Positions 8,479 to 31,088 of a stretch of 64,000 bases of DNA are shown one piece after another. This stretch comes from Burkholderiales bacterium (GTDB lineage Bacteria; Pseudomonadota; Gammaproteobacteria; Burkholderiales; SG8-39): the NCBI GenBank assembly GCA_035310985.1, contig DATGDH010000133.1, positions 31,251 through 95,250 of the forward strand, written 5' to 3'. The notes beneath the pieces were generated by a model. That model was given only the letters and a program-made list of their open reading frames with translations, searched no databases and was not told the DNA's origin. Made by a program: the position numbers and the translations under genes. Positions within the stretch are counted from its first letter, which is position 1. Every line of letters starts with the position of its first letter.

Positions 8479-9237
8479 ATGCCAGTTCGGGAAAGCACGG
8501 CCGTGCTGCGCATCACGCGGCTCGAGAAGCGCTACGGCAAGCGGCTGGTGCTCGCCGGGGTCGACCTCGATCTCGCGGCCGGCGAGTCGCTCGGCTTGGT
8601 CGGACTGAATGGCGCGGGCAAGACCACCCTCATCAAGTGCCTGCTCGATCTGTGCGGCCACGATTCGGGCGCGATCGAACTGTTCGGCCTGCGCAACGAC
8701 GAGCCGCGCGCGCGGCAACGGCTTGCCTATGTGCCGGAGCGCTTCATGCCGCCGCATTATCTGCTGTGCCGGGAGTTTCTCGGCCTGATGCTTTCGCTTT
8801 CGGGTGGCCGCTACGAGCGCGAGCGCGCACGCGTTGCACTCGTCGAGCTCGAGCTCGACGCGGAAGTGCTCGACCGCCCGGTGCGCCAGCTCTCCAAGGG
8901 AATGACGCAGAAGCTCGGGCTCGCGGCCTGCTTTCTGCTGGAGCGCGACTTGTACGTGCTTGACGAGCCCATGAGCGGCCTTGACCCCGCCAGCCGGGTC
9001 GCGGTCAAATCGGTGTTGCACCGCCTCAAGAACGAGGGCCGGGCGTTGCTCATCACCTCGCACGTGCTCTCGGACGTGGAGGAATTATGCTCATCAGTGG
9101 CGGTGCTCGATCGCGGAATGATCAGATTTCGCGGCACGCCGGCGGCGCTGTGCGACCGTTATGCCGAGCCGCAACTTGAGCGGGCATTTCTGAGGTGCAT
9201 TCGCGACAATGGCGAGCAACTTGCAGGACGCGCGTGA
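8479..9237 (+). CDS. ABC transporter ATP-binding protein, PilH-like (Myxococcus type)
   Basis: GLNGAGKTT, signature LSKGMTQK, YVLDEPMSGLDP, TSH; first gene of the pilus block. Confidence 0.85.
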   Translation: MPVRESTAVLRITRLEKRYGKRLVLAGVDLDLAAGESLGLVGLNGAGKTTLIKCLLDLCGHDSGAIELFGLRNDEPRARQRLAYVPERFMPPHYLLCREFLGLMLSLSGGRYERERARVALVELELDAEVLDRPVRQLSKGMTQKLGLAACFLLERDLYVLDEPMSGLDPASRVAVKSVLHRLKNEGRALLITSHVLSDVEELCSSVAVLDRGMIRFRGTPAALCDRYAEPQLERAFLRCIRDNGEQLAGRA

Positions 9238-12207: not shown

Positions 12208-12322
12208 CGATTATTGACAACCCATGATGGCGAAAAACCTCCGCATGACAGAAGGTTAGCGTGGTTTTCTCAGGATTGGCATGATATGCTTTTCGCGGCA
12301 AAGGGGGGAAGGCGCGCCCGTC

Positions 12323-14128
12323 ATGAACCGAAGCAAGAAGATAGTCGCCATGGGTCTCGCCGCGCTGCTCGCGGGCTGCGGTGAGGCGCCACTCAAGCCC
12401 GCAGAGACCCATCTCCGGGCCGAAACAGCTTCCCGCACCGGGGTTATTCCACCTCCCGTGCAAGCTGCGCCCGTCCTGCCGAAGCCAGTGCCTCGTACGC
12501 CGCCCGAAACCTACAGCGTGGTCGTCAACAACGTGCCTGTGCACGACCTGCTGTTTGCACTGGCACGCAACGCGCACGTGAACGTGGACATCGACCCCGG
12601 GGTCACCGGCATGGTGACGCTGAACGCCATCGACCAGACGCTGCCGCAGTTGCTGACACGCATCGCCCGCCAGGTGGACATGCGCTACGAAACGCGCGGT
12701 AACGATCTGGTCGTGATGCGCGACACGCCTTACCTGCATCTGTACAAGATCGATTACGTCAACATGGCGCGCAACGCGACCATGAACGTGTCGGTCTCCA
12801 GTCAGCTTGCGGGAGGGACGACCATGAGTGGGGGCGGGGGCGGCAGCGCCGGCGCCGCAAGCGGCACGACCAATTCCTCGTCCTCGCTCGTCATGACCTC
12901 GAACAACAAGTTCTGGGACGCGCTGGTCGCTAACGTCAAAGACATCCTGCGCGAGACGGATAAGGTGCTGCCGGCGAACGCCGCCGTCGAGGGCGGACAG
13001 GCTGCCGCGCCCGCAGCCGCCCAAACTGCGACAGGTGCGCAGCAGGGCGGGCAACAGCAGGTCGCCCCAAGTGCGCCGGCGGTTCAGCCGGTCGCCTACC
13101 GCGAAGCCGCTTCGGTCATCGCCAACCCCGAGACCGGCATCCTCACGATCCGCGCCACCGCGCGCCAGCACGCCAAGATCCAGGAGTTCCTCGACCATGT
13201 CATGGCGAGCGCCAAGCGCCAGGTGCTGATCGAGGCGACCATCGCCGAAGTCCGACTGAACAACGATTATCAGCGCGGCATCGACTGGTCGCGAGCGCTC
13301 ACCGGTAGCGCCGGCTGGACTTTCAATCAGTCCTCCGCGGGCACGCCGGCGAACATCACGACGAACGCGTTTACCATCGGTTACTCCGCCCTCAACATGA
13401 AGTTCACCTCTGCGCTGAAGATGCTAGAGTCCTTTGGCCAAGTACGGGTGCTTTCCAGCCCGACGCTCACGGTGCTAAACAACCAGGCCGCGGTGATGCG
13501 GGTGACGAATGACCTGGTGTACTTCACCTTGCAGCCGGGCACCACGACCGTGTCGTCCACTGGCACGGGAGTGGTAAACGCGCCGCCTACCTTCACTACG
13601 ACGCCGAACGTCTCGCCGGTCGGCCTGATCATGAGCGTCGTGCCGCAGATCAGTGATTCGGACGTCGTGCTGCTCGACGTTCGACCGACGATCCGCAGGC
13701 AGATCGACAGCGTGCCGGACCCGAACCCGGCGCTCGCCAACCCCTGCGGCGCCGGCGGCGGGCTCGGGGCAAGCTGCGCCCCGATCCAGAGCTTGATCCC
13801 GGTGATCCAGACGCGAGAGATGGAGTCGCTCCTGCGCGTGCAGAGCGGCCAGATTGCGGTGCTCGGCGGACTGATGGAGGACACGCGCTCGTCCACGGAG
13901 GACACGATTCCCGGTGTCAACAGGGTTCCATTCCTCGGCGACCTGTTCCAGCAGCGCCGCGACCAGAACCAGAAGACGGAGCTCGTAATCTTCCTGCGTG
14001 CCACGGTCGTGCGCGACGCCAGTCTCGAGGGGGAATTCGCCGCCTTCCGCGATCAGCTGCCAGACAAGGATTTCCTCTCCAAGCCGAACCCCGCCCGTAA
14101 CGCGCCTGTGGTCGTGCCGGGAAATTGA
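12323..14128 (+). CDS. Lipoprotein secretin, MshL-like
   Basis: Lipobox LAGC; QVLIEATIAEV, GIDW, VLSSP, QIAVLGGLM, VPFLGDLF, TELVIFL. Confidence 0.92.
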   Translation: MNRSKKIVAMGLAALLAGCGEAPLKPAETHLRAETASRTGVIPPPVQAAPVLPKPVPRTPPETYSVVVNNVPVHDLLFALARNAHVNVDIDPGVTGMVTLNAIDQTLPQLLTRIARQVDMRYETRGNDLVVMRDTPYLHLYKIDYVNMARNATMNVSVSSQLAGGTTMSGGGGGSAGAASGTTNSSSSLVMTSNNKFWDALVANVKDILRETDKVLPANAAVEGGQAAAPAAAQTATGAQQGGQQQVAPSAPAVQPVAYREAASVIANPETGILTIRATARQHAKIQEFLDHVMASAKRQVLIEATIAEVRLNNDYQRGIDWSRALTGSAGWTFNQSSAGTPANITTNAFTIGYSALNMKFTSALKMLESFGQVRVLSSPTLTVLNNQAAVMRVTNDLVYFTLQPGTTTVSSTGTGVVNAPPTFTTTPNVSPVGLIMSVVPQISDSDVVLLDVRPTIRRQIDSVPDPNPALANPCGAGGGLGASCAPIQSLIPVIQTREMESLLRVQSGQIAVLGGLMEDTRSSTEDTIPGVNRVPFLGDLFQQRRDQNQKTELVIFLRATVVRDASLEGEFAAFRDQLPDKDFLSKPNPARNAPVVVPGN

Positions 14129-14129
14129 G

Positions 14130-15551
14130 ATGAGCCTGCTCCTCGACGCGCTGAAGAAAGCGGAAAAGGCGAAGGAAGAGGCGCAGCGTCGTGCCGAGGC
14201 GGACGAGACGGCGGCGCCGAGCGCACCCAGCACGCCGCCGGATCTGCGGCTTTCCGAAGAGGCGCGCGCGAGCGGCACGCCGCACGTGCGTACGCGCGAC
14301 GAGCTACCCGATATCTCGCAGTCGCTTGAGATCGCGACCGAGGATCTGTCACCCGTGAGTCGTCCGCGCGAAGCGCCCCGTGAGCTCACGCTCGAGAGCC
14401 TCGAAGCGTCTCCGCAGACTGCTTCTCCGGTGCGCCAGCGACCGACCACAGCGCAGAGTGATGCAGCGCGCGGACAGAGCGCCGAACGCGCCGCCGCGAA
14501 GATGGTTTTCGAGGCCAAGATGAGGGAGCCCAATCCGCGCTTGCCGTTTTTCATCGCGCTCGGCGTGCTAGGCGCCGTGGCGCTCGGCACGGTGGTCTAT
14601 TTCTGGTATCAGTTGCGGCCGCCGCCGTCCCTTGTGAACGCGAATCCGGTCCCGACCCAGGTCGAGCAACTCCCCTCGGTGGCCGGGAGCGGCGGCACCG
14701 CGGCTCCCATGGCGCCCTCGTCCGGCGCTGGGATTACTGGCGGCGAGGTACCCGGCCTGCCGGGACTTCCGGCGGCCCCCCCGGCACCGCCGCCGCAGCA
14801 GGCCGCGCAGGCGCCGTCCGAACCGCCCGCGCAAGCGCGCACGTCCGCGGCGAGGCCCGAGCAACGCGTCGCTACGCGCGCGGCGGTCGGGCTGCGTGCT
14901 GCACCCCAGTCGCCCGCTCCGCGCGTCGAGCTGAAAAGGCCATCGAGCGATGATGCGCTGACGGTTGCACGGCCGGCGCCGCGTCTCGACCCGGATGTCG
15001 CCGCCGGTTATGCGGCCTACCAGGAGGGCGATTTGGCGGCCGCGCGGACCCACTACGAGCAAGCGCTGCAGAAGGACGCCGGCAACCGCGATGCTCTGCT
15101 TGGCCTCGCAGCGCTCGACATGCGCGCGCAGCGCTACGACGCCGCTGCCACCCACTACCGGCGGCTGCTGCAGGCGAATCCGCGCGACCCGTATGCGCTT
15201 GCGGGGCTGCTGGCGCTGCGCGGCGGCCAGGTCGATCCGCTGTTCGCGGAGAGCCGCGTGAAGACCCTGCTCGCATCCGATACGGGTACCGATGTGCTGA
15301 ACTTCACGCTCGGTAACGAGTACGCCCGGCAGGGACGCTGGGGCGAGGCGCAGCAGGCCTACTTCAAGGCGTTCGCCGCCGACCCGAGCAATCCCGACTT
15401 TGCCTACAATCTCGCCGTGAGCCTCGAACACATTGGCAAACCGGAGCTCGCACTCGAGCAGTACCGGCAAGCGCTCGCGCTCGCTCAGCAGCGAGCCGCG
15501 AGCTTCGACCCGGCAGCGGTGCGCAAGCGCGTCGAGGAGCTGAGCAACTGA
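14130..15551 (+). CDS. Membrane-anchored TPR protein (GspB/MshN-like)
   Basis: N-terminal MSLLLDALKKAE, one TM segment, Pro-rich linker, C-terminal TPRs (AYNLAVSLE, ALEQYRQAL). Confidence 0.8.
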   Translation: MSLLLDALKKAEKAKEEAQRRAEADETAAPSAPSTPPDLRLSEEARASGTPHVRTRDELPDISQSLEIATEDLSPVSRPREAPRELTLESLEASPQTASPVRQRPTTAQSDAARGQSAERAAAKMVFEAKMREPNPRLPFFIALGVLGAVALGTVVYFWYQLRPPPSLVNANPVPTQVEQLPSVAGSGGTAAPMAPSSGAGITGGEVPGLPGLPAAPPAPPPQQAAQAPSEPPAQARTSAARPEQRVATRAAVGLRAAPQSPAPRVELKRPSSDDALTVARPAPRLDPDVAAGYAAYQEGDLAAARTHYEQALQKDAGNRDALLGLAALDMRAQRYDAAATHYRRLLQANPRDPYALAGLLALRGGQVDPLFAESRVKTLLASDTGTDVLNFTLGNEYARQGRWGEAQQAYFKAFAADPSNPDFAYNLAVSLEHIGKPELALEQYRQALALAQQRAASFDPAAVRKRVEELSN

Positions 15552-15598
15552 GGAATAGATAGGTTCGCCCGGCACGCGCCGGACACCATTATTTACGG

Positions 15599-17308
15599 AT
15601 GAACTCGCCCACCAATCCGCAGGCCAGGCGCCACATCGGGCAGATCCTGATCGACCAGGGCATCCTCACCGAGGATCAGCTCAGGATCGCGCTGCTCGAG
15701 CAGATGAAGTCGCACCTGCCGGTGGGCCGGCTGCTGGTGCAACTCGGCTTCGTGTCGGAAGCCACGCTGCGCGACGCGCTGTCGCAGAAGCTCGGCCTGC
15801 AATCGGTAGATCTGGCGCACATCATCGTCGACCCGGCTGCACTCAAGGCGCTACCCAGGGAGCTTGCGCGGCGCTACCGCATCTTTCCCATCGCGCTCGA
15901 CCGCCAGGCGAACAGGTTCATCGTGGCGCTCGCGGACACGAACAACATCGTGGCGGTCGACCAGTTGCGCACGCATCTCAAGGGCGACTTCGAGATCGAG
16001 CTTAGGCTCGCCGGCGACTCCGAGATCGAGCGAGCGATCGAGCATTACTACGGGCACGAATTCTCGATCGACGGCATCCTGCAGGAGATCGAGACCGGCG
16101 AGGTCGACTACAGCTCGCTGACCGAGGAGGACGAGTACAGCCAGCCGGTGGTGCGGCTCATCTCGGCCTTGCTCGCCGATGCGGTCGAACACGGCGCCTC
16201 CGACATCCACTTTGAGCCCGAGCAGAGCTTTCTGCGCATTCGCTACCGCATAGATGGCGTCTTGCGCCAGATCCGCTCGCTGCACAAGACCTACTGGCCG
16301 GCCATGGCGGTGCGCCTGAAGGTCATGTCCAAGATGAATATTGCCGAGACGCGCGCTCCGCAGGACGGTCGCATATCGGCGACCATGTCCGGCAGGGTCA
16401 TCGATTTCCGCGTCTCCAGCCTGCCGACCACGCACGGCGAGAACCTGGTGCTGCGCATCCTGGACCGCCAGAAAGGGATCGTGCCGCTGGACAAACTCGG
16501 CCTCGAGGACTCTCAGCTCGAGCTGCTGAAGCGCATGATCGCCCGACCGGAGGGCATCATTCTCGTTACCGGTCCTACCGGAAGCGGCAAGACGACAACG
16601 CTCTATTCGATCCTCAATCACGTCAACTCGGACGCGGTCAACATCATGACGCTCGAGGATCCCGTCGAATACCCGCTGACGCTCATCCGTCAGACCTCGG
16701 TGTCGGAGGCGGCGAAGCTCGATTTCGCCAACGGCGTACGCGCCATGATGCGCCAAGATCCGGACAAGATTCTCGTGGGTGAGGTGCGCGACGCCGATAC
16801 GGCCGAAATGGCGTTCCGCGCCGCGATGACCGGTCACCAGGTGTTTTCCACGCTGCATACCAATTCGGCAATCGGCGCCATTCCGCGACTGCTGGACATC
16901 GGAATCGTGCCGGACGTCATGACCGGGAACATCATAGGCGTCATCGCGCAGCGTCTGGTGCGCAGGCTGTGCCGGACTTGTCGCCAGGCGTACGCCCCAG
17001 ACGCGGGCGAGATGCGCATGCTGGGCATGAAGGCGAGCGAGACCGCGACGCTGTACCGCGCCGTCGGCTGCGAGCAGTGCGACTACCAGGGATACCGGGG
17101 ACGCACAGCGATCATCGAAATCCTGAAAATTGACGCGACACTCGACGAACTTATCGCGCGGCGGGCCACCACGCGCGAGATCTTCGATGCGGCGCGCGCC
17201 AAGGGCTTCAGGACCCTGGCAGATGACGGCGTGCGTCTGGTGCGCGCCGGCGCGACAAGCCTCGAAGAGCTGATGCGCGTGGTGGACCTGACCGATCGGA
17301 TGGGTTGA
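15599..17308 (+). CDS. GspE/PilB/MshE-family assembly ATPase
   Basis: ASDIHFEP, PQDGR, GPTGSGKTT, TLEDPVE, RQDPD..VGEVRD, tetra-Cys LCRTC/GCEQC. Confidence 0.95.
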   Translation: MNSPTNPQARRHIGQILIDQGILTEDQLRIALLEQMKSHLPVGRLLVQLGFVSEATLRDALSQKLGLQSVDLAHIIVDPAALKALPRELARRYRIFPIALDRQANRFIVALADTNNIVAVDQLRTHLKGDFEIELRLAGDSEIERAIEHYYGHEFSIDGILQEIETGEVDYSSLTEEDEYSQPVVRLISALLADAVEHGASDIHFEPEQSFLRIRYRIDGVLRQIRSLHKTYWPAMAVRLKVMSKMNIAETRAPQDGRISATMSGRVIDFRVSSLPTTHGENLVLRILDRQKGIVPLDKLGLEDSQLELLKRMIARPEGIILVTGPTGSGKTTTLYSILNHVNSDAVNIMTLEDPVEYPLTLIRQTSVSEAAKLDFANGVRAMMRQDPDKILVGEVRDADTAEMAFRAAMTGHQVFSTLHTNSAIGAIPRLLDIGIVPDVMTGNIIGVIAQRLVRRLCRTCRQAYAPDAGEMRMLGMKASETATLYRAVGCEQCDYQGYRGRTAIIEILKIDATLDELIARRATTREIFDAARAKGFRTLADDGVRLVRAGATSLEELMRVVDLTDRMG

Positions 17309-17335
17309 GCGCGGCCGTGGCGCCGCGCAGCGAGC

Positions 17336-18541
17336 ATGCCCCTCTACACGTACAAGGCGATCGACGGCGACGGCAAGAGCGTGCTCGGGCGGATCGAGGC
17401 AGTGAACGTGTTCGACCTCGAGCAGCGTCTGGCGCGCATGGGCCTGGACCTGGTGAACGGCGCTCCGACGAGCGGCCGCTCGCGGTTGATCGGTGGCATG
17501 CGCGTCAGCCGCCCGGACTTGATAAATTTCTGCTTTCACCTCGAGCAGCTCACATCCGCTGGTGTACCGGTCGTCGAAGGCCTCGTGGATCTGCGCGAGA
17601 GCATGGACAATGCGCGCTTTCGCGAGGTGGTGTCGGGTCTTGTCGAGGCGATCGAGGGAGGTCGCAGCCTGTCCCAGGCGCTTGCCGAGTATCCCGAGGT
17701 TTTCGGCAAGGTATTCGTTAGCCTGGTGCGCTCGGGTGAGCAGACGGGCAAGCTCCCCGCTGTGCTCAAGAGCCTGACCGAATCGCTCAAGTGGGAGGAC
17801 GAACTCGCCGCGCAGACCAAGAAGCTGCTCATGTACCCGGCGTTCGTCGGCACGATCGTCTTGCTTGTGACCTTCTTCCTCATGATCTACCTGGTGCCGC
17901 AGATGACCGGGTTCATCCGCAACATGGGGCAGCAGATTCCGCTGCAGACGCGCATCCTGATCGAAGTGTCGAATTTCTTCGTCAACTTCTGGTGGGCGAT
18001 CGTCGCGGCGCCGTTCGTCACCTGGTTCGGACTGAAGCTCGCCGCAAGATCGTACCCGGCGGTCGAATACGCCATCGATCGCTACAAGATCTCGCTGCCG
18101 CTGGTCGGCCCGATCCTGCGCAAGATCATCCTGTCGCGCTTCGCCTCCAGCTTCGCAATGATGTATGCGTCCGGGATCACAGTACTCGACGCGATCCGCA
18201 GCTCAGAGGAAATCGTGGGCAACAAGCCTCTAGAAAATGCGCTGCACACTGCGGGTCAGCAGATCTCCGAAGGCAAGAACCTGACCGCAGCATTCCAGGA
18301 AGCGGAGCTGTTCCCACCGCTGGTTATCCGCATGCTCAAGATCGGCGAGAATACCGGCGGGCTCGACACGGCGCTGCTGAACGTGAGCTATTTCTACAAC
18401 CGCGAGGTAAAGGAAGGCATTGGGAAGCTGCAGGCGATGATCGAGCCCGCGCTCACGCTCGTCCTCGGCCTGATCCTCGGCTGGGTGATGCTGGCCGTGC
18501 TCGGGCCGGTGTACGACACCATCTCGAAAATGAAGTTCTGA
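17336..18541 (+). CDS. GspF/PilC/MshG inner-membrane platform protein
   Basis: YTYKAID, LVRSGEQTGKL, LMYPAFV, MLKIGENTGGL, MIEP. Confidence 0.94.
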   Translation: MPLYTYKAIDGDGKSVLGRIEAVNVFDLEQRLARMGLDLVNGAPTSGRSRLIGGMRVSRPDLINFCFHLEQLTSAGVPVVEGLVDLRESMDNARFREVVSGLVEAIEGGRSLSQALAEYPEVFGKVFVSLVRSGEQTGKLPAVLKSLTESLKWEDELAAQTKKLLMYPAFVGTIVLLVTFFLMIYLVPQMTGFIRNMGQQIPLQTRILIEVSNFFVNFWWAIVAAPFVTWFGLKLAARSYPAVEYAIDRYKISLPLVGPILRKIILSRFASSFAMMYASGITVLDAIRSSEEIVGNKPLENALHTAGQQISEGKNLTAAFQEAELFPPLVIRMLKIGENTGGLDTALLNVSYFYNREVKEGIGKLQAMIEPALTLVLGLILGWVMLAVLGPVYDTISKMKF

Positions 18542-18557
18542 AAGGGCTGCAAGGGCG

Positions 18558-20105
18558 ATGTCGGCCAAGCGCATTCTGTACTTCACCTCGAGCGAGCACC
18601 TCGTTTATCGTTGGTCGCGGCGTGCGCTCGACCTCGACGCGCGCTTCGAGGCCGACGAGGAGGGCTTGAACGCTTTCCGCGAATTCATGCGCCACCAGAA
18701 GGGGGCACTGTTCTATGTGGTCGCCGACCTCGCGGGCGAGGACTTCCACGAGGACCAGATACCCTATTTGCGCGGCGGCGACCGTCAAGCCGTGGTGCAG
18801 CGGCGTCTGGCACAGCGCTACCGCGACACGCGCCTCGCGACCGCTTTGCCGCTCGGCTACGTCACCGGCGAGAGGCGGAACGAGCGCCTGTTGCTCGCCT
18901 CTTTCACCAATACCCAGCAGTTCACTCCTTGGCTCGACGCGCTGGTCGACTCCGAGGCCAAGCTTGCCGGCGTGTATTCCGCGCCACTGATCGCGCCTGC
19001 GCTGGCAGCACGCCTCGGGGCGCGCAAGGGGCGGGCATTCGTGGTCACCCAGAATAGCGCCGGCTTGCGTCAGTGCTACGTGGACGACGGGCGGCTGCGA
19101 TTCTCGCGCCTAGAGCGCACCGGCAACATGGCGCCCGCCTCGCTCGCCGCACTCGTGCGCTCCGAGATGGTGCGTCTGGCGCAGTACCTTGGCGGCCTGC
19201 GCGCGTTGCCGCGCGAGGGACCTCCGATACAGGTACTGGTGGTCGCCCCGCCGGGCCAGCGCGCGGCGTTCGAACACGCGCTCGTTTCGGATGCGCGGCT
19301 TTCGTTCCGCACGTTCGATGCGGACGAGGCGGCGCGCTCGGTCGGCGTTCGGCGCGCGGGCGATTCGCTCGCCGAGCGGCTGTATCTGCACCTGGTAGTC
19401 TCCAAGCCGCCGAAAGAGCAATTCGCGCGCAGAGAGGAGCGTCGGGGCTACCGCATCTGGCAACTGCAGCGCGGCATCGCGGCAGCGGGCGTGCTCGGCT
19501 TCGCCGCATGCGCGCTCTACGCCGGGGCGAACTGGTGGGACGCGCTTTCGGTGCGCAGTAGCATCGAGTTCCAGCAACGCCAGGCACGCGCCGCATCCGA
19601 GCAATATGAGCGCATCACGGCAGCGTTTCCGGTCACCCAGACCAGCAGTGACAACCTCAAGGCGACCGTGGTGGAGTTCCGCAAGATCGCCGCCAGCAGC
19701 GGCAGTCCCGAGGCCTCGCTGGTGCACCTGTCGAAGGTGCTCGACCATTTTCCGCAAATCGAGCTCGATCGGCTGGTGTGGCGCATGGGCGTGCCGACCG
19801 AGGACGGCCGCGAGGCACCGCCCGCGGCGGCGGCACCACCCACGAACGCCGCGTCTGCGCGCGACGTCCAGGTGCTCGAGATCGCGGGCCGCGTGAACGC
19901 CACTCAGCGCTCGGACTATCGCGGCATTACCGCCCAAGTGCAGCAGTTCGCCGACGCACTCAGTGCGGGCGGCGTGTACCGCGTGCTGCGCACTCAGCTG
20001 CCGTTCGACATCACGTCGCAGGGTACGCTTACCGGGGACATCGGCGCCTCCGAGGCGAGCGAGGCGCCGCGCTTCACTGTCGTGCTTGCCAGGGGTCCGA
20101 AATGA
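18558..20105 (+). CDS. Putative alignment-complex protein (PilM/PilN- or GspL-like fusion)
   Basis: Large N-terminal soluble part, single TM (IAAAGVLGFAACALY), coiled coil and periplasmic domain; follows the platform gene. Confidence 0.6.
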   Translation: MSAKRILYFTSSEHLVYRWSRRALDLDARFEADEEGLNAFREFMRHQKGALFYVVADLAGEDFHEDQIPYLRGGDRQAVVQRRLAQRYRDTRLATALPLGYVTGERRNERLLLASFTNTQQFTPWLDALVDSEAKLAGVYSAPLIAPALAARLGARKGRAFVVTQNSAGLRQCYVDDGRLRFSRLERTGNMAPASLAALVRSEMVRLAQYLGGLRALPREGPPIQVLVVAPPGQRAAFEHALVSDARLSFRTFDADEAARSVGVRRAGDSLAERLYLHLVVSKPPKEQFARREERRGYRIWQLQRGIAAAGVLGFAACALYAGANWWDALSVRSSIEFQQRQARAASEQYERITAAFPVTQTSSDNLKATVVEFRKIAASSGSPEASLVHLSKVLDHFPQIELDRLVWRMGVPTEDGREAPPAAAAPPTNAASARDVQVLEIAGRVNATQRSDYRGITAQVQQFADALSAGGVYRVLRTQLPFDITSQGTLTGDIGASEASEAPRFTVVLARGPK

Positions 20106-20710
20106 ATTTCACGGCCGCCGAGGCGCGCAAGCTGGCCCTGCCCCTACTCCTGTGTCTACTGCTTCTTGGCGGGGGCGCAGCGCTCATTGCGCAGGTGCAG
20201 TCGGTGCTTGCGCGCGACCACCGTGAGCTCGCCGAAGCTCAGCGCCAGCGCGCCGAAGCGAATCAGCGGCTAGCGCGCATCGCCGAAGAAGAGCGGGAGG
20301 TAAACGAAAAGCTCGCGCTTTACCGGCGCCTCAAGGCGCTGCACATCATTGGTCCGGAGCGCCGCCTGGAATGGGCCGACACGATGGCGCACATTCGCAC
20401 CAGCCGTGAGCTGCCCGACCTGCGCTACCAGGTCGAGCGCCAGCAACTGCTCGTATCGGTGCCGGGAAAGCCCGCGAACGTCGATTTCTACTCGAGCACG
20501 ATGAAAGTCGACCTCGCGTTGCTGCATGAAGGTGACTTGCTCGGCTTCCTCAAGGACCTGCGCGACTCGGGCAACGCCTACTACTCGATTCGAAGCTGCG
20601 ACATTTCGCGCACCGGACAGACTCCGACGGGAACCTCGATCGTGCCGCGGCTGCACGCGAGGTGTGACATCGATCTCATCACCATACTCGACCGGGCGGC
20701 GAAGACATGA
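20102..20710 (+). CDS. Putative PilO/GspM-like bitopic protein
   Basis: ATGA overlap; N-terminal TM, coiled coil, LLHEGDLLGFL; operon position. Confidence 0.6.
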   Translation: MNFTAAEARKLALPLLLCLLLLGGGAALIAQVQSVLARDHRELAEAQRQRAEANQRLARIAEEEREVNEKLALYRRLKALHIIGPERRLEWADTMAHIRTSRELPDLRYQVERQQLLVSVPGKPANVDFYSSTMKVDLALLHEGDLLGFLKDLRDSGNAYYSIRSCDISRTGQTPTGTSIVPRLHARCDIDLITILDRAAKT

Positions 20711-21153
20711 CGCGCGGCGCCGGGCCACTGATCGCCATCGCGCTCGCGGCGTGCGCCACGGTCGCGCAGGCACAGGAACTCGGACGCCTGTTCTTCACGC
20801 CCGAGCAGCGTGCGCAACTCGACGAGCGGCGCAAGGCACACGTGCCGGACAAACCCGCCGCCGTGCTGGTCGAGTCGCCGAGTACTCGCCTCGACGGTTA
20901 CGTTAAGCGCTCGCGCGGCGAGTCGACCCTATTCGTCAATGGCGAGGCGATCCCAGAGGGCGTTCAGACCGAGGGTATGCAGGTCGTTCCCGACCGCGCC
21001 AGCGCGGACCGCGCGACGATCGTCACAGGGGAGGGCGGGAAGCGCGTTCGGCTGAAGGTCGGTGAATCCCTCGATCGCGGCACCGGGACGGTGCGCGACG
21101 TCGTCGACGGCGAGGTGCGTGTCGCGCGTCCGAGAGCTAGCGCCGGTCGCTGA
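20707..21153 (+). CDS. Secreted pilus-associated protein (PilP/MshK-like position)
   Basis: Signal peptide ending AQA; ELGRLFFTPEQRAQLD; LKVGE. Confidence 0.55.
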   Translation: MTRGAGPLIAIALAACATVAQAQELGRLFFTPEQRAQLDERRKAHVPDKPAAVLVESPSTRLDGYVKRSRGESTLFVNGEAIPEGVQTEGMQVVPDRASADRATIVTGEGGKRVRLKVGESLDRGTGTVRDVVDGEVRVARPRASAGR

Positions 21154-21172
21154 GCCAGACAGCACTCCGTCG

Positions 21173-22834
21173 ATGCAGCGGCGCGTCGGTCGAGTAGGTT
21201 CGCAACAGGGCGCGGCGTTACTCGCCCTACTCGCACTCGCCGTGCTCGCGGTCTCCTGGTTCCTACTCGCGGCGCTGCGAGACACAGGCAACTACACGGC
21301 ACGGGCGCGGACGCGCAATGCAGCGGTGATGCAACGCGCCAAGCAGGCGCTCGTCGGTTACATCGTGCGCCAGGCAGCACTGCAGGAAGAAGACAATCCG
21401 GGTCGACTGCCATGCCCAGAGGCGCGCGGCTACATCGGTACCGCGAGCGAGGGCATCGCCGCGGGCAGCTGCACGCTGCCGGCCCTAGGGCGGTTGCCGT
21501 GGCGCACGCTGGGTCTGGATCGGACGCTAGACGCCTTCGGCGAACCGCTGTGGTACGCAGTCTCACCCGGTTGGGCGCTGCCCAAGCCGGGCGCCGAGCT
21601 GTCGATCAACTCCGACACCGAGGGCGGCCTCTCGGTCGATGGGCGAGAAAACGCGGCGGTGGCGCTGATCATCGCCCCTGGACCGGCGCTTGCGGTCGCG
21701 CCCGTCGCGGGATGCGTGGCGCGCACGCAGTCGCGCGGCATCACGCCTCCCGACGTACGCGACTACCTGGAGTGCGCCAACGCCGACGTTCCCACCGACG
21801 CGCGCTTCGCGAGCGCCGGCCCGCTCGGGGCGTTCAACGACCAGGTACTAGCGGTGACCGCGGCCGATCTGCTGCCCGGCCTTGAGGCGGCCATCAAGGT
21901 GCGCATCGAGCGCGACATCGTGCCCGCGCTCAGGCAGGTCTACGCCGGTCCGGAATGGGGGCTACCTGCCGGTCACGTCGCTTTCCCCTATGCTGCACCG
22001 TTCATGGATCCGGGCGCGTCGGATTTTCGTGGAGCGGTGGGTGCCACCCAAGGGCTGCTGCCCTTCAGTGCCGCGCTGGGCTGCGCTGTGCGCAACGACG
22101 CGCGCTGCATCCCCTCGCTCACCGGCTGGGATGCGCGGCGTGCGCCGGACGTCGTGCAAATCGGCGGCAGTGGGCGACTGCGCAACGCGCAATGCGGATT
22201 CGCGGCGGACGCAAGCGCCTGGTGCCGCGGAACTTACTCGGGCGCGCCGCGGCTGCGCCTGAGCGCGACCCAGCATGGCGTCGCGCTGGCCCTGCGCAAA
22301 TTCGACCCGCAAAACGCGACGGTCTATTACTATTCGGCGACGGGCCGCGTGCCGGTGGCCGGAACGCTGAGCGGGCGCCTCGCGGCGGATGCTTCCGCTC
22401 GCGTCGAGCTGTCCAGCAGCCTGCCGGACCTGGGCAGCGAAACCGACTTCTATATGACTATGGGTCAAGACGTGCTCGCCGACCATCCGCTGCTCGACCG
22501 CAACAATCCGACGAGCGGATGGTTCGTACGCAATGAATGGTTTCGCCTCGTGTACTACGCCTTTGCGCCGCGGCTCGCGCCTGGCGGCGCGGGGCAGTGC
22601 AGCGCCTCTGAACCAGTGACCTGCCTGCAGGTCGAGAATCTCGAGCCGCGTGCTGCGCAGCGTGCGATTCTGGTGCTGGCGGGCCGTAGTCTGCGCGGCG
22701 CAGCGCGTCCGAACGACTCGCTCGCGGACTATCTCGAGGACGAGGAAAACCGCGACGGCGATGGCCGCTTCGTGCAACGAATTGCGGGCGCGACGTTCAA
22801 CGATCGATTCATCGCATTGGACGTGGAGCCGTGA
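21173..22834 (+). CDS. Large PilX/GspK-like minor pilin (no E5), Cys-rich
   Basis: SQQG|AALLALLALAVLAVSWFL class III-like leader; GRLPCP, GRLPWRTLGL, WYAVS, FND motifs. Confidence 0.7.
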   Translation: MQRRVGRVGSQQGAALLALLALAVLAVSWFLLAALRDTGNYTARARTRNAAVMQRAKQALVGYIVRQAALQEEDNPGRLPCPEARGYIGTASEGIAAGSCTLPALGRLPWRTLGLDRTLDAFGEPLWYAVSPGWALPKPGAELSINSDTEGGLSVDGRENAAVALIIAPGPALAVAPVAGCVARTQSRGITPPDVRDYLECANADVPTDARFASAGPLGAFNDQVLAVTAADLLPGLEAAIKVRIERDIVPALRQVYAGPEWGLPAGHVAFPYAAPFMDPGASDFRGAVGATQGLLPFSAALGCAVRNDARCIPSLTGWDARRAPDVVQIGGSGRLRNAQCGFAADASAWCRGTYSGAPRLRLSATQHGVALALRKFDPQNATVYYYSATGRVPVAGTLSGRLAADASARVELSSSLPDLGSETDFYMTMGQDVLADHPLLDRNNPTSGWFVRNEWFRLVYYAFAPRLAPGGAGQCSASEPVTCLQVENLEPRAAQRAILVLAGRSLRGAARPNDSLADYLEDEENRDGDGRFVQRIAGATFNDRFIALDVEP

Positions 22835-23622
22835 ATATGCACGGCGTCGCGTCGGCACGCATCCAGAGCGGCTTCTCGCTGGTTGAAGTCGCGGTCGTGC
22901 TTGCTATCGTCGGTCTGCTTCTCGGCAGCGCGATGTATACGCTTTCCGCCCAGCTCGAGCAGCGCGACGAGACGCGCACCACGCGCTTCCTGGACGAGGC
23001 GCGCGAGCTGCTGCTCGCATTCGCCATCGTCAACGGCCGTCTGCCCTGCCCGGCGCGCGACACGAGCGGCGGCGACGAGCTGCGCGACGATGCGGGCGTG
23101 TGCAGGGATGCGGCAGGAAACGACGAGTACTACCGCGGACTGTTGCCGGCGCGCGCGCTCGGTCTGCAGGAAGTCGACGCCCAGGGTTTCGCGCGTGACG
23201 CCTGGGGCAACCGAATCCGCTATGCCGTGGCGAAATCGGTGATCGGCTGCGCGCGCGCGCCGAAGCTGCCGCACTTCACTTCGGCAACCAACCTCAAGGG
23301 CAACGGCATTACCTGCCAGCCCGCTGACCTGCTGATCTGCAGATCGGCCGCGGGGATCAATCCGGCGAGCTGCGGCCGTGCGGGCAACTCGCTCACCAAT
23401 CAAAACCTGGTGGTCGCGGTGCTGCTCTCGCCGGGCAAGAGCGCGGCGCTTGGACGCAGCGGCGGCCCCGACGACGCGGCAAACGCGGATGGCGACGCGG
23501 TATTCGTGGCGCACGCGCCGGCGCCCGCCGGCGCCGTCGGCGGCGAGTTCGACGACCGCCTGACCTGGATCACCGTCGGCGAGCTTTACGGGCGCATGGT
23601 GGCCGCGGGGCTGCTGCCGTGA
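22831..23622 (+). CDS. Minor pilin/pseudopilin with N-methyl-Phe leader
   Basis: QSG|FSLVEVAVVLAIVGLLLG; GRLPCPA, DAWGNRIRYAV, FDDRLTWI. Confidence 0.88.
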   Translation: MNMHGVASARIQSGFSLVEVAVVLAIVGLLLGSAMYTLSAQLEQRDETRTTRFLDEARELLLAFAIVNGRLPCPARDTSGGDELRDDAGVCRDAAGNDEYYRGLLPARALGLQEVDAQGFARDAWGNRIRYAVAKSVIGCARAPKLPHFTSATNLKGNGITCQPADLLICRSAAGINPASCGRAGNSLTNQNLVVAVLLSPGKSAALGRSGGPDDAANADGDAVFVAHAPAPAGAVGGEFDDRLTWITVGELYGRMVAAGLLP

Positions 23623-24914
23623 CCGCTCGCGTGACGCCTTCGGTTCTGCTGCGCCGGCTCGGCACCGCCGGGGTACTGCCGACCGACTCGGAGGAAATCC
23701 AGCTCAAGAAGCACGTGCTGCTCTTCTCCTGCGGCCTGATGATCGGCGGCTCGGCGATCTGGCTCGGACTTTACCATCTGCTCGGACTGCCCCTCTCGGC
23801 CACATTGCCGTTCAGCGTCGAAGTGATCTCGCTCTGCACGCTGTTCGTTTACTTGTGGACTCTGAACTTCAAGTTCTTCCGTGTCGCCCAGCTTTCGCTC
23901 TGGCTCTTCGTGCCTTTCGTAGTGCAGTGGGCGATGGGGGATTTCGTATCGGCGAGCGGCATGATCCTCTGGGGCCTGCTTGCTCCGGTCGGCGCCGCGC
24001 TTCTGCTGTCGGCGCGCGAGTCGCTGCCTTGGATGGTCGCATACGTCGTGCTGACAGTCGCCACCGGCTACGTGGACCACGAGCTGGCGGGCGCGTCGGG
24101 CTCGCGGCTGCAGGTGCCGGTGAGGACTATCGTCGTGTTCTTTGCCCTGAATTTCGCCACCGTGTGCGCGATGGTGTACTGGCTGCTGAGCTTCGCCTTT
24201 ACTGAGCGCGAGCGGTCGCGCGCACGACTGCAGGACGCGCACGCGCGCCTGCAGGAGGAGCAGGAGCGCTCCGAGCGCCTGCTGCTCAACATACTGCCCG
24301 CGCCGATCGCCGAGCGGCTCAAGAAATCGGAAGCGGCGATCGCCGACGGCTACGCGGACGTGACCGTGATGTTTGCCGACATCGTCAATTTCACGCGCCT
24401 GGCCGAAGACATGACACCTCGCCAGGTGTTTGCCCTGCTGAACCGCATGTTCTCCGAGTTCGACGCGCTCGCCGGGCGCTTCGGCCTGGAGAAGATCAAG
24501 ACAATCGGCGACGCGTACATGGTCGCCGGTGGACTCAATCAGGGCAATGCCGAATACAGCGGGGCCATCGCGGAGCTCGCGCTCGAGATCCGCGACCTCG
24601 TGGCGCGCGAGTTCCACGTCGACGGCGTGCCGCTCGCGTTGCGCATCGGAATCGGTACCGGGCCGGTGGTGGCCGGCGTGGTCGGCAAGAAGAAGTTCAT
24701 CTACGACCTGTGGGGAGATACCGTCAACATCGCCAGTCGCATAACGACCGAAGGCGTGCCAGGCATGATCCAGGTCGACCAGGCCACCTACAGGCGGTTG
24801 CGCGACAAATTCGAGTTTCTCGAGCCGCAGACCATCTATCTCAAGGGCAAGGGCGACACGACCGTCTACCGCATGATCGGGCGGCGTGCGGACAAGCAGC
24901 GCGAAGCAGTCTAG
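23619..24914 (+). CDS. Membrane-bound class III adenylate cyclase
   Basis: About 6 TM segments, coiled coil, LLNILP, FADIVNFT, EKIKTIGDAYM, YDLWGDTVNIASR; the K and D residues indicate ATP specificity. Confidence 0.9.
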   Translation: MTARVTPSVLLRRLGTAGVLPTDSEEIQLKKHVLLFSCGLMIGGSAIWLGLYHLLGLPLSATLPFSVEVISLCTLFVYLWTLNFKFFRVAQLSLWLFVPFVVQWAMGDFVSASGMILWGLLAPVGAALLLSARESLPWMVAYVVLTVATGYVDHELAGASGSRLQVPVRTIVVFFALNFATVCAMVYWLLSFAFTERERSRARLQDAHARLQEEQERSERLLLNILPAPIAERLKKSEAAIADGYADVTVMFADIVNFTRLAEDMTPRQVFALLNRMFSEFDALAGRFGLEKIKTIGDAYMVAGGLNQGNAEYSGAIAELALEIRDLVAREFHVDGVPLALRIGIGTGPVVAGVVGKKKFIYDLWGDTVNIASRITTEGVPGMIQVDQATYRRLRDKFEFLEPQTIYLKGKGDTTVYRMIGRRADKQREAV

Positions 24915-26629
24915 GACGCTGCCGCAGGGCCGGCGAGCGCGAAGCAAACCTCACCGTCCCGATTGCTGCGCAGCGCGAGCTCGAAACCCGCCGCCTCCGC
25001 CTGGCGTGCGGCCTGGTAGAGACCGATCCCGAGCCCCGCGCGCGAATCGACCGGCGCCTGCAGCAGCTTGGGCGCAACCTCGGGCGGCACCGCGTGCCCG
25101 CTGTCGCACACCCTGAGCTCGATGCGGTCCGCGCCGCATTCTAGCGCCACGCGCACGCGCACCGTGCCGTCTTCGCGGCGCTTGGCCAGCGCGTTTTGCA
25201 GCAGATTGTCGGCCACGCTGCCGAACAGCGTGCGTGGCACCTGCAGGCCCGCGCGCAGCCCGCGCACCGCGAATTCGACCCCGTGGTCGCGGTACTGGCG
25301 CGAGAGCGCGTCCCACCAGGCCTCCACCTCGGCCGGCTTCTCGCTGTCGGCCTGCGGCCGCTCGAGTTTCTCGAGCGTCTCGCCCAGGCGCTGGGCAACC
25401 GCGGGCAGCTGGCGGCGCACCAGCGCCTGCAGCTCCGGAGAATTCTCGTCCTGCTCGCGCGCGGCCACGGCGCACAGGACGTTCAGCGACTGAAGCAGGT
25501 TCTTCACGTCGTGCGTCATGCGTGCGCCGGTCTCGTGCACCGCCTTGAGGTAGCTCTGCTCCTGGAGTTTCTGCTCGCGCAGCTTTCCCACGTAGAACTC
25601 GGCAAGCAGCTGACCCAGCACGTGCAGGTGCCAGTGCAGGGCCGGCCCCGTGCGGTAGCGGGAGTAGATCGTGAGCGACAGTTCGCGGTTGGCGAATTCG
25701 ACTGCGTACGGACTCTTCGCACCCGCTTCTCCGCTGCCGTGCGCGCCGCGCCAGGTGGCGCCCGCTACCCATTGAAGACGCGCCAGCCCGGCGACTGCCT
25801 CGGCGAGGAAGCGCTCGGGACGGGTTTCGATCTGGGACAGCTCGGCAAGGAAGTACAGCCATTTCTCGATCGGCAGGCCGATCGAAAACAGATAGCGGGA
25901 GACGAACACGCTCAGTCCGGTGAAGCCGGTGCGCGGATCCCAGGCGAGTCCGATCACGAACACCATCGCGGCGATCAGGAAGACCGTGTAGGTGAGCGCC
26001 GGGAGGTAGGCCATGCGGCCGAGCGTCATGAAGGTGAAGCTGCCAAGCGTGACGATGCTCAGCACGAGCATGACGAACAGGCTGTAGAAAAAGTCGATCA
26101 CCTGAGGCGAGTCGACTGGATCGGGCTCGGTCGGGAACAGCAGCGCCGCAAACAACAGCACCGGCAGTCCGTACTCGAACATTGCGCGCACTTCGGCGGT
26201 AACCTCCCGCCGCGGCGCGATCTCCGGCAGGATGATCACCGCGAGCAGCGCGATCAGGTACACCAGCACCACCAGGTAAAACCGGCGTTGCCAGCGCGCG
26301 TGCTGCTGATACACCTTGCCCGCGACGAATCCCGCCAGCATCACCACCCAGAACGCGAGCAGCCACCAGCCTAGCCAAAGCATTACCGCGACCGCCGCAC
26401 CTGCGATCAGCGCCGCCTGCGTCAGGGTCACGCGCTCCTGACCTCGCAGGAACGGCTGCCACAGCAGCAAGAGGCCGAGGTGCGCGAGCAATAGCGCGCG
26501 CGCCCAGTCGTCGGCCACGCCGCGCACCGCCGCCACGTGCAACAGCAGCAGCATCGCGATCACCACAATGCGCCAGTTGCGCCGGCTGAAGCGCGCGACG
26601 GCGTCCGCGATCTGCGCGAACGCCGGCAC
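24911..26629 (-). CDS. Polytopic membrane histidine kinase, PrsK-like H-box
   Basis: Multi-TM N-terminus; H-box MTHDVKNLL, N-box DNLLQNA, DSG, GLGIGL; GTG start 5 nt after GGAG (alternative start 26635). Confidence 0.85.
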   Translation of the reverse strand: MPAFAQIADAVARFSRRNWRIVVIAMLLLLHVAAVRGVADDWARALLLAHLGLLLLWQPFLRGQERVTLTQAALIAGAAVAVMLWLGWWLLAFWVVMLAGFVAGKVYQQHARWQRRFYLVVLVYLIALLAVIILPEIAPRREVTAEVRAMFEYGLPVLLFAALLFPTEPDPVDSPQVIDFFYSLFVMLVLSIVTLGSFTFMTLGRMAYLPALTYTVFLIAAMVFVIGLAWDPRTGFTGLSVFVSRYLFSIGLPIEKWLYFLAELSQIETRPERFLAEAVAGLARLQWVAGATWRGAHGSGEAGAKSPYAVEFANRELSLTIYSRYRTGPALHWHLHVLGQLLAEFYVGKLREQKLQEQSYLKAVHETGARMTHDVKNLLQSLNVLCAVAAREQDENSPELQALVRRQLPAVAQRLGETLEKLERPQADSEKPAEVEAWWDALSRQYRDHGVEFAVRGLRAGLQVPRTLFGSVADNLLQNALAKRREDGTVRVRVALECGADRIELRVCDSGHAVPPEVAPKLLQAPVDSRAGLGIGLYQAARQAEAAGFELALRSNRDGEVCFALAGPAAAS

Positions 26630-26706
26630 GCTCACTCCGTCAGCTTGCACGGCCCGCCCCCGCCCGCTAGCCTTCGTTGTCGAATGTCCACAGCTCGATT
26701 CTAGCC

Positions 26707-27471
26707 ATGCCGGCGGTCGCCATCCTCGCACGCTTCGTACTTCTTGAAGCACGCCGCAGCGGCCTTCCCTGGCTGGTCGCGGCAAGCCTGGCGGCCGCGC
26801 TTGGCTTGGCGGCGTTCGTCTCGCAGGTCGCGCTCACCGAGAGCATTGCACTGCAGGCAGCCTTCTCCGCAGCGCTGCTGCGCGCCTGTGCGGTAGTTCT
26901 CGTCGCGTTACATGTCGCGGCCAGCACGGTGCGCGAAGCGAATGACAAGGGGCTGGAGCTGATGCTGACGCTGCCGATATCGCGCAGCGCCCAGTACGCC
27001 GGGCGCCTGGCCGGCTACGTCGCCCTGGGCGTGGTGATCTCGGCGTGCTTCGCACTGCCGTTGTTGCTCTGGAGCCCGCCAGCCCCGGTCGAGCTGTGGG
27101 CCGCGTCCCTGGCGCTGGAAACAGCAATGGTCGCGGCCGCGGCGCTGTTCTTCTCCATGGCACTGGTTCAGCCGGTGCCCGCCTTCGCTGCGACTGCAGG
27201 GCTCTACCTCCTCGCCCGGGCCATCGGCGCGGTTCAGTCGATCGCGGCGAGTCCGCTCGCGGAACCGACGCTCGCGCACCGCCTGGCGCGGTGGAGCATC
27301 GATGTGGTGGCGCTGCTGCTGCCGCGGCTAGATGCCGCCACGCGCACCGACTGGCTGATCTACGGCGCTCCGACGGCAAGCGCGTACATAACGGCACTCG
27401 CCGGGCTGGCGCTCTATTCGCTCCTGCTGGTAGCCGCCGGGCTGTTCGACTTTCACCGTCGCAACCTGTGA
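26707..27471 (+). CDS. ABC transporter permease, PilI-like
   Basis: LARFVLLEARR, ELMLTLPISRSAQYAGRLAG, about 6 TM segments, ends FDFHRRNL. Confidence 0.8.
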   Translation: MPAVAILARFVLLEARRSGLPWLVAASLAAALGLAAFVSQVALTESIALQAAFSAALLRACAVVLVALHVAASTVREANDKGLELMLTLPISRSAQYAGRLAGYVALGVVISACFALPLLLWSPPAPVELWAASLALETAMVAAAALFFSMALVQPVPAFAATAGLYLLARAIGAVQSIAASPLAEPTLAHRLARWSIDVVALLLPRLDAATRTDWLIYGAPTASAYITALAGLALYSLLLVAAGLFDFHRRNL

Positions 27472-28211
27472 GCCGCGACGAGCGCCCCCTGACCGCGGTG
27501 CCAGGCTGGATCTGGCTGGCACTCGCCGCCTGCCTGGCACTCCAACTGGCGTGGGCCGGCATGCGGCCGGGAATGCTCCATCGCGCCGAGGACCTTCCGC
27601 CCGCCCCAAGGCTCGTGGCGCTGCGGTTAGCGAGCCTAGGCGAGCCCGAGGCCTTGGCGCGCCTGGCAATGCTCTACCTCCAAGCGTACGACCTGCGCGG
27701 CGCGAACGACGTTCCATATCAGGACCTGGACTACCAGCGGCTCGTCGCGTGGCTAGGCGTGGTTCTCGCGCTGGACCCCAAGAGCGAGTACCCGCTTTTC
27801 TCAGCCGCACGCGTATACGCAGAGGTCCCTGATCCTGCAAAAGCCGGAGTCGTGCTCGACTTTATTTACCGGGAGTACCTGAAGGACCCCAATCATCGTT
27901 GGCAGTGGCTCGCGCAAGCCGCCCTCGTCGCCAAGCACCGCCTACACGATCTTCCGCTCGCCCTGCGATATGCGGACGCCATCGACCGGTACACGACTGC
28001 ATCCGACGTGCCGCTTTGGGCAAAGCAAATGCGCATCTTCATCCTCGAAGACATGAACGAGCTGCAGGCCGCGAAGGTGATTCTCGGTGGCTTGCTTGCG
28101 AGCGGCGCCATCAGAGACCCGGCCGAGCGGCGCTTCCTCGAGCGCCACCTGGAGGGCCTGGAAGCGCGGCAGGTAGGGCAGGCGAACGGAGGAAAAATGT
28201 CACGCCCGTGA
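27468..28211 (+). CDS. PilG/XapA-like membrane-anchored helical protein
   Basis: GTGA overlap; N-terminal TM, LYLQAYD, LALDPKSEYP, TPR-like helices; lies between the permease and the pilin. Confidence 0.55.
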   Translation: MSRDERPLTAVPGWIWLALAACLALQLAWAGMRPGMLHRAEDLPPAPRLVALRLASLGEPEALARLAMLYLQAYDLRGANDVPYQDLDYQRLVAWLGVVLALDPKSEYPLFSAARVYAEVPDPAKAGVVLDFIYREYLKDPNHRWQWLAQAALVAKHRLHDLPLALRYADAIDRYTTASDVPLWAKQMRIFILEDMNELQAAKVILGGLLASGAIRDPAERRFLERHLEGLEARQVGQANGGKMSRP

Positions 28212-28233
28212 CGAACCTGTCGAAAGCTCGACG
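28198..28233 (+). promoter_or_regulatory. Two palindromic enhancer (UAS) sites TGTC-N8-GACG, 20 bp apart
   Basis: TGTCACGCCCGTGACG (28198-28213) and TGTCGAAAGCTCGACG (28218-28233); each has perfect 5-bp arms and a 4-nt spacer. Confidence 0.7.
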
Positions 28234-28256
28234 TTTCACTTGCATGCTTTCGTCCG

Positions 28257-28269
28257 TAACTCATTGAAA
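28257..28269 (-). promoter_or_regulatory. IHF-like binding site
   Basis: TTTCAATGAGTTA versus WATCAANNNNTTR, one mismatch; located between the UAS and the sigma54 promoter. Confidence 0.55.
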
Positions 28270-28286
28270 ATACAACTACATCTAGC

Positions 28287-28302
28287 GGGCACGGGCTTTG
28301 CA
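28287..28302 (+). promoter_or_regulatory. Sigma54 (-24/-12) promoter of the major pilin
   Basis: GG-CAC-GGGCT-TT-GC-A matches GGCAC-N5-TTGC; about 40 nt upstream of the pilin ATG. Confidence 0.88.
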
Positions 28303-28341
28303 TAACACTGAATACCCAGTTCCAATTTAGGGGGTAGAACC

Positions 28342-28998
28342 ATGAAAGCAATGCAGAAAGGCTTCACGCTTGTCGAGATCGCGATCGTTCTGGTCATCAT
28401 CGGCCTGTTGCTCGGCGGCATCCTCAAGGGTCAGGAGATGATCACGCAGGCGAAGATCAAAAACGTGATCGCCGACTTCTCCGGGATCTCGGCCGCGTAT
28501 CACGGCTACCAGGACCGCTATCGCGCGATTCCCGGGGACGACAAGGGCGCGTCACGCTGGACCGGCATTAGCGCCTTGGGCGACGGCGATGGCCATGTAA
28601 TGGGCCTCTACAACAGCGCGACCGCTACCGACGAGTCGCGTCTATGGTGGGAGGACCTGCGGCGCGCAGGCTTCATTACCGGGACGGGCAACGGCCAGCC
28701 CCTGAACGCGGTAAGCGGCATGATCGGCGTGCAGACCGGCGACGGTGCCGCAGCGCCCGGTCGGGTGCTAAACGGTGCTACGGCCGACGGATTCGCGGGA
28801 CTCATCATCTGCTCGGCGAATCTGCCGGACAAGATTGCGATTGCGATCGACGCGCAGATGGACGACGGCGTGCCGAACGCGGGCACGGTTCGCGCGCAGC
28901 TGCAAGCTGCCCTCAACCCGGCGATCGGCACGACGGCGGATACGGCCTACGCGGAAACCGGGAACAACAGCTACACGGTCTGCCGCTCGCTCAACTAA
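28342..28998 (+). CDS. Type IV prepilin, probable major pilin
   Basis: MKAMQKG|FTLVEIAIVLVIIGLLLGGILKGQEMI; E5 present; two Cys in the C-terminal half; has its own promoter and terminator. Confidence 0.92.
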   Translation: MKAMQKGFTLVEIAIVLVIIGLLLGGILKGQEMITQAKIKNVIADFSGISAAYHGYQDRYRAIPGDDKGASRWTGISALGDGDGHVMGLYNSATATDESRLWWEDLRRAGFITGTGNGQPLNAVSGMIGVQTGDGAAAPGRVLNGATADGFAGLIICSANLPDKIAIAIDAQMDDGVPNAGTVRAQLQAALNPAIGTTADTAYAETGNNSYTVCRSLN

Positions 28999-29021
28999 GC
29001 GGCACTCGCCAAAGGAAGGTC

Positions 29022-29051
29022 AAGGCCGGCGCGAGCCGGCCTTTTCTTTTT
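29022..29051 (+). terminator. Rho-independent terminator
   Basis: AAGGCCGGC-GCGA-GCCGGCCTT stem-loop followed by TTCTTTTT. Confidence 0.9.
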
Positions 29052-29061
29052 AGACGGCGCT

Positions 29062-31041: not shown

Positions 31042-31088
31042 CGTGGAGAGGGCGGTCGAAGAGTGGGCTTGGGCTATACTTCTTGTCT

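Follow-up and report, generated by a model that had tools for sequence, protein, structure and literature searches.

A conserved sigma-54 promoter of a likely major pilin gene in a Burkholderiales bacterium and its probable activator

Introduction

Which activator switches on a pilin gene whose genome encodes several candidates? We addressed this question for a type IV pilin gene of a Burkholderiales bacterium (assembly GCA_035310985.1, contig DATGDH010000133.1), analysed in a window of 64,000 nucleotides, the whole stretch of DNA under study. The pilin gene is the last gene of a 20-kb block and is preceded by paired palindromes and a sigma-54 promoter element, and the initial annotation had assigned the palindromes to the activator encoded in the same block at 9209 (Table 1). 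The genome encodes six sigma-54 activators, including a PilR ortholog (contig C131) and a GlrR-like protein (contig C72), so this assignment faced real rivals.

Table 1 Features of the pilin promoter and the surrounding pilus cluster (positions in the window).
Feature	Coordinates	Strand	Remarks
Activator with receiver, sigma-54 AAA (GAFTGA) and Fis-type HTH	9209..10687	+	predicted binder of the palindromes
MSHA-like assembly genes	10699..23622	+	MshM/ExeA-like AAA, MshL-like secretin, TPR protein, MshEN-ATPase, platform protein, unnamed assembly genes, minor pilin
Membrane histidine kinase	24911..26785 (ORF limits)	-	best NCBIfam match PrsK, below cut-off
ABC-2-permease-like gene and conserved unnamed gene	26677..28211	+	permease a weak Pfam hit; unnamed gene (27468-28211) adjoins the enhancer
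UAS1, distal palindrome TGTC-N8-GACG	28198..28213	no strand	predicted activator-dimer site, inner GTCAC-N4-GTGAC
UAS2, proximal palindrome TGTC-N8-GACG	28218..28233	no strand	inner GTCGA-N4-TCGAC, better motif match than UAS1
IHF-like site	28257..28269	-	1 mismatch to consensus; predicted to bend the enhancer-promoter spacer
Sigma-54 -24/-12 element GGCAC-N5-TTGC	28288..28301	+	exact, conserved
Type IV prepilin, likely major subunit	28342..28998	+	218 aa; 7-aa leader, G/FTLVE cleavage, 211-aa mature
Intrinsic terminator, hairpin and T tail	29022..29051	+	stem 29022-29043, 9 pairs, GCGA loop, z = -2.8

Results

A sigma-54 promoter unit precedes the pilin gene

The elements listed in the initial annotation are present in the sequence: the tandem palindromes with the inner sequences claimed for them, the IHF-like site, the exact GGCAC-N5-TTGC, the pilin ORF and the terminator with its GNRA loop. 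The two palindromes start 20 bp apart. From the position of the -24/-12 element, +1 is expected near 28313, which puts the palindrome centres at about -107.5 (UAS1) and -87.5 (UAS2), in keeping with the 90-110 bp upstream given earlier. The pilin promoter thus has the marks of one that depends on sigma-54 and a bacterial enhancer-binding protein (bEBP), namely a GG-N10-GC element, palindromes roughly 80-150 bp above +1 and an IHF site between them. A sigma-70 scan of 26000-32000 gave no candidate at the pilin promoter, and weak terminator-like calls on the UAS palindromes were set aside as by-products of their palindromy.

By pattern count, the 3.83-Mb genome contains 57 single TGTC-N8-GACG matches and one exact tandem. 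The genome-wide scan named beforehand as a check, which pairs GTC-N8-GAC with the -24/-12 element, singled out the same locus: among 29 genomic GGCAC-N5-TTGC sites, the one at the pilin is alone in having GTC-N8-GAC within 100 bp upstream.

Another check named in advance, a motif search above orthologous pilins, found the tandem conserved. In the home family, which served as the motif training set, both the tandem and the -24/-12 element are found in 19 of 20 genomes with a syntenic upstream gene, and the remaining genome has lost both. The 20-bp spacing recurs in 51 of 61 good loci. The consensus, YGTCR-N6-YGACR with an A/T-rich centre, is preferable to the notation TGTC-N8-GACG. IHF-like sites with at most one mismatch were found in 23 of 61 orthologous spacers, against 4.6 expected. 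The enhancer-promoter distances show helical phasing at 10.5 bp (R = 0.50, compared to 0.16-0.29 at 9, 10, 12 and 13 bp), a signal that is merely suggestive since 21 of the 61 distances fall at 59-62 bp, largely from kin.

The tandem follows the 9209 regulator

We sampled 251 genomes of the order, of which 149 have the pilin, 108 a 9209 ortholog, 108 the kinase, 168 PilR and 116 a GlrR-like protein. Pilin regions were taken for part of the 149, comprising the top matches and 20 picked for an absent regulator. We left out any pilin that follows another pilin, a single minor pilin, and upstream segments shorter than 300 bp, and kept the best-scoring pilin per genome. This gave a test set of 95 genomes outside the home family, for a motif whose training set was the home family alone, with the tandem called at a score of at least 10 (the top of 285 shuffles scored 9.7).

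Of the 66 genomes that have a strict 9209 ortholog, 43 had the tandem; of the 29 others, 2 did. At the cluster head of each of these two lies a partial 9209-type gene, with 59% and 51% identity (G226, frameshifted, and G150, receiver-degenerate), while three control genomes have nothing above 44% identity to 9209. Once the two are reclassified, a step taken after the result was seen, the tandem is present in 45 of the 68 genomes that have a 9209-type regulator and in none of the 27 that lack one; on the same division, the sigma-54 site is present in 61 and in none, respectively. The tandem is associated neither with PilR (41 of 83 PilR-positive and 4 of 12 PilR-negative genomes) nor with GlrR (29 of 58 and 16 of 37). 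In each of seven families that contain both states, the members without the regulator score below 0. A whole-genome pattern scan, independent of the choice of pilin, found matches in 28 of 110 genomes with the 9209 type and in 4 of 141 without, as against 9 of 110 and 15 of 141 for the reversed control. The tested genomes are kin and not independent observations, and p-values would overstate these differences.

The 68 regulator-positive genomes include 23 that score below 10 within 450 bp: two of these have a tandem inside the kinase gene, many have weak matches spaced by 20 bp, and some have none. In relatives without the regulator, the pilin gene begins 58-91 bp after the upstream gene and has no sigma-54 site. 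Three such clusters were seen whole (G074, G161 and G198), and in all of them regulator, kinase, MshM-like gene and promoter are lost together; the co-occurrence is therefore also compatible with another factor lost along with them. The proposed assignment of the palindromes to the 9209 regulator passed this comparison with PilR and GlrR, which points to 9209 as the probable binder.

The regulator and its likely partner kinase

The 9209 regulator is encoded by a gene separate from the PilR ortholog and has a different recognition helix, which contains RTTLY in 80 of 80 close orthologs. Close orthologs of the regulator stem mostly from metagenome-assembled genomes labelled Burkholderiales or Betaproteobacteria. 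Its receiver keeps the Asp. The PilR on contig C131 belongs to a cluster with members named PilR by JGI; a plasmid search for a named PilR returned generic names only. The gene rpoN lies at 34572, 5.6 kb downstream of the pilin.

The kinase gene at 24911, whose true start is probably nearer 26650, likely encodes the partner of 9209, judging from gene content: kinase and regulator, each present in 108 genomes, occur together in 106, and no kinase match was found in G068, where the regulator is without a receiver part, or in G150. PrsK is the best NCBIfam match of the kinase (335 of 502.6 bits) and PrsR the second best of the regulator (77.5 of 300), and both proteins stay below the curated cut-offs of TIGR02916/TIGR02915 (PrsK/PrsR). 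The regulators with a degenerate (G150, L214:1413-2774) or missing receiver (G068:C8:14230-15246) are possibly kinase-independent activators; G150 retains the strongest tandem.

The pilin and its cluster

The structure model of the pilin (pLDDT 94) is closest in fold to CofA (Z 9.1, rmsd 3.7, 163 aligned), followed by C. difficile PilA1 (Z 8.1, rmsd 3.4, 123 aligned) and TcpA (Z 8.0, rmsd 3.9, 152 aligned), while EpsG and PulG are poorer matches (Z 5). No MshA structure is among the fold matches listed, which excludes nothing. The mature pilin (28363-28995) has a short leader of the T4a type, yet its model is closest to type IVb CofA and TcpA and to C. difficile PilA1. Its 211 residues place it in the 'large major pilin' size class, which in the consulted part of PMC11046646 begins at 166 aa. 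The best NCBIfam match is a weak one to GspG. The pilin is likely the major subunit, as had been proposed; the support is indirect, from a promoter and terminator of its own and from closest folds that are major pilins.

The proposal that the gene is monocistronic stood at its 3' end and is less certain on its 5' side. The terminator faces a convergent gene for a Kef-type K+ antiporter, and a hairpin with T run follows the pilin in 19 of 20 orthologs examined. On the 5' side, no strong terminator follows the upstream operon, and an RNA-library contig (28191-28970) spans the junction, enhancer included; it may represent read-through or DNA carry-over. Another contig starts at 28326. Of 11 RNA runs listed, none contained half of the sequence words; the four examined consist of contigs only, with thin cover of most of the 20-kb cluster, so that expression level, strand, start and operon status cannot be read from them. 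A paralogous stand-alone pilin gene (G000:C120:425-1084, L215), 70-72% identical, has neither a sigma-54 site nor a UAS.

The cluster resembles mannose-sensitive haemagglutinin (MSH) loci. Homologs of the mshE, mshG, mshL and mshM type are all present at one locus, MshL being the best model of the secretin at 224 of 250 bits, below its cut-off. Neither PilT nor a prepilin peptidase is among the Pfam hits of the locus ORFs, in line with the MSH model (Denise 2019), which has no prepilin peptidase in the locus. The cluster ATPase also has the MshEN c-di-GMP motif. A class III adenylate/guanylate cyclase gene lies in the cluster (23619-24914); it is also found in G015, G180, G149 and G048, but not in most relatives. 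The gene pair at 26677-28211 has no adjoining ATP-binding gene and is missing in some relatives; there the kinase and pilin genes are immediate divergent neighbours.

Alternative explanations

The palindromes could be chance occurrences or by-products of protein coding, given that the upstream ORF stops at 28211, so that UAS1 overlaps its last codons (as had been noted), and that a looser single GTC-N8-GAC has 1906 matches in the same genome of 68% GC. We regard this explanation as refuted: the overlap occurs in 8 of 18 home-family loci and is thus incidental, UAS1 is kept in the 10 of 18 where it is non-coding, the spacing is fixed and the tandem tracks the regulator. Could the sites instead be bound by the canonical PilR, with the pilin co-regulated with T4a pilA? 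A PilR ortholog is encoded in the genome, and the P. aeruginosa PilR footprint, which reportedly has TGTC half-sites, was counted in favour of this explanation. PilR with sigma-54 is also a known pilin switch (PMC7170775, in the part consulted). However, of 21 genomes that have PilR and no 9209 type, none has the tandem, and it is found in 4 of 6 with 9209 and no PilR match. The motif does not track PilR, and T4a pilA-like promoters, which have sigma-54 sites as well, carry a different one, of the TGAC-N7-GKCA type (18 of 27 segments versus 0 of 81 MSH-like promoters), which is presumably that of PilR. Control by PilR is accordingly very improbable. Slimmer still are the chances of the GlrR-like activator, which is likewise encoded in the genome and whose enterobacterial counterpart, as described in the cited excerpt (PMC3045617), shares the half-site TGTC in its site TGTC-N10-GACA. 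The spacing here is N8 and not N10, and the tandem occurs in none of 12 genomes with GlrR and without 9209, but in 16 of 22 without GlrR and with 9209.

It is also conceivable, and we think unlikely, that the promoter is real and only boosts a gene whose transcription comes mainly from the upstream operon, or that the gene encodes a secretion-system pseudopilin rather than the major subunit of a surface pilus. Booster status would fit the lack of a strong terminator ahead of the promoter, the RNA-library contig that crosses into the pilin, and the regulator-less relatives in which the pilin closely follows the upstream gene; a pseudopilin would fit the missing PilT and prepilin peptidase and the weak GspG match. 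Against these stand the conserved dedicated promoter and terminator, a fold that matches fibre-forming major pilins (Z 8-9) better than EpsG or PulG, and a secretin whose best model is MshL. We conclude, on comparative sequence grounds and with good confidence, that a conserved sigma-54 promoter serves this gene, which likely encodes the major pilin of an MSHA-like filament, and that the palindromes most likely form the enhancer used by the cluster's own activator, 9209.

Discussion

From what is known of bEBPs, we infer binding, looping, phosphotransfer, start site and major-subunit status for activation by 9209 as follows. The kinase would phosphorylate the 9209 receiver; two HTH dimers, on sites two helical turns apart, would then seed an AAA+ ring; IHF would bend the spacer; the ring would remodel sigma-54 polymerase at -24/-12; and the pilin message would end at the hairpin.

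Promoter layout and mechanism are ordinary textbook matter, with a PilR-like logic and a FleQ-like box geometry. PilS-PilR and T4a pilA of Pseudomonas and Xanthomonas, as presented in the excerpts of PMC7170775, likewise combine a two-component bEBP and sigma-54 with a pilin that has its own promoter, but 9209 is not a PilR ortholog, has another recognition helix and has an enhancer unlike the motif at the home genome's pilA. Two tandem T4a pilA-like genes (G000:C82:62341-63519; L212, L217) each have their own sigma-54 site, and the second has the conserved TGAC-N7-GKCA motif, a candidate PilR site. The PrsK-PrsR system of PEP-CTERM, in the sections of PMC1569441 drawn on here, also pairs a membrane kinase with an NtrC-type activator, has its enhancer about 60 nt above -24/-12 and was assigned by the same phylogenetic-profile logic. 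The PrsR motif, however, is given there as 17 nt ending in TTTACA before PEP-CTERM genes, whereas here YGTCR-N6-YGACR precedes a pilin. The FleQ box GTCAAT-NN-ATTGAC (PMC10723142, consulted in part) shares the 14-bp core GTC-N8-GAC, which is A/T-rich in the middle and of a size suited to one Fis-type HTH dimer; here G prevails at position 4, with Y and R at the flanks, and 9209 differs in a receiver that keeps its Asp and in having a partner kinase. By our reading, no FleQ-like protein is among the six bEBPs of the home genome.

MSH filaments, known from Vibrio MSHA, share with this cluster a single locus with an MshM-like AAA protein, MshL-like secretin, TPR protein, MshEN-ATPase and platform protein and no prepilin peptidase in the locus (PMC6668835, for the portion seen), and homologous MSH clusters are noted in Sideroxydans and Gallionella in the available part of PMC3770913. 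The present cluster departs from the class in its embedded sigma-54 two-component pair, in a 211-aa pilin modelled nearest to CofA, TcpA and C. difficile PilA1, and in an MshL model match below cut-off. In a literature search whose coverage stopped short of subscription papers and supplements, we found no study of a 9209-type regulator, its motif or its promoter. With the architecture being textbook, the gain is a predicted binding site, and with it a new regulator-motif pair of a known kind, and not a new mechanism.

Other candidate targets were sought with a home-genome scan model partly trained on the pilin site itself. Two loci in the home genome combine a tandem with a strong sigma-54 site: the pilin, and a gene for a single-domain CheY-like receiver on contig C72 (G000:C72:44324-44897; L211, L247), which has a tandem UAS, an IHF-like spacer and -24/-12. 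The latter layout is also found in G015 and G014 of the same genus, which makes 3 of 28 genomes with a homolog, so it is not family-wide. In two genomes of family f30 (L294, L295), the tandem lies 140-164 bp above the sigma-54 sites of MHYT-domain genes. In three genomes of family f20 (L290, L291, L292) it is separated by 3 bp from the -24 element of genes that, by our reading of the sequence, are subtilase-like, an arrangement that raises the question of repression or of a divergent target. The tandems inside kinase coding sequence (L090:1557-1592 in G050 and L084:1565-1600 in G103) score 29.1 and 33.6, compared to at most 6.6 at that place in the other 38 kinases. The strong sigma-54 site some 1.4 kb downstream of them has no enhancer nearby, a possible case of enhancer relocation in one genus.

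Taken further than the comparisons reach, and as a speculation that we hold as possible and rather doubtful, the unnamed PrsK/PrsR-like pair, found in about 40% of sampled genomes of the order, may run a small surface-attachment regulon via the YGTCR-N6-YGACR tandem. The pilin would be its constant member, joined according to lineage by a CheY-like receiver, by an MHYT sensor or by a secreted subtilase. The enhancer would be mobile and would, in one lineage, have shifted 1.4 kb upstream into the coding sequence of the kinase. MSHA-type machinery would assemble the filament from a large pilin whose fold is type IVb-like.

The analysis supplies a DNA site, a partner kinase and first targets, all predicted, for an uncharacterised sigma-54 activator present in 108 of the 251 sampled genomes. 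The bacteria of the sample likely control two pilus systems, each through its own sigma-54 enhancer.
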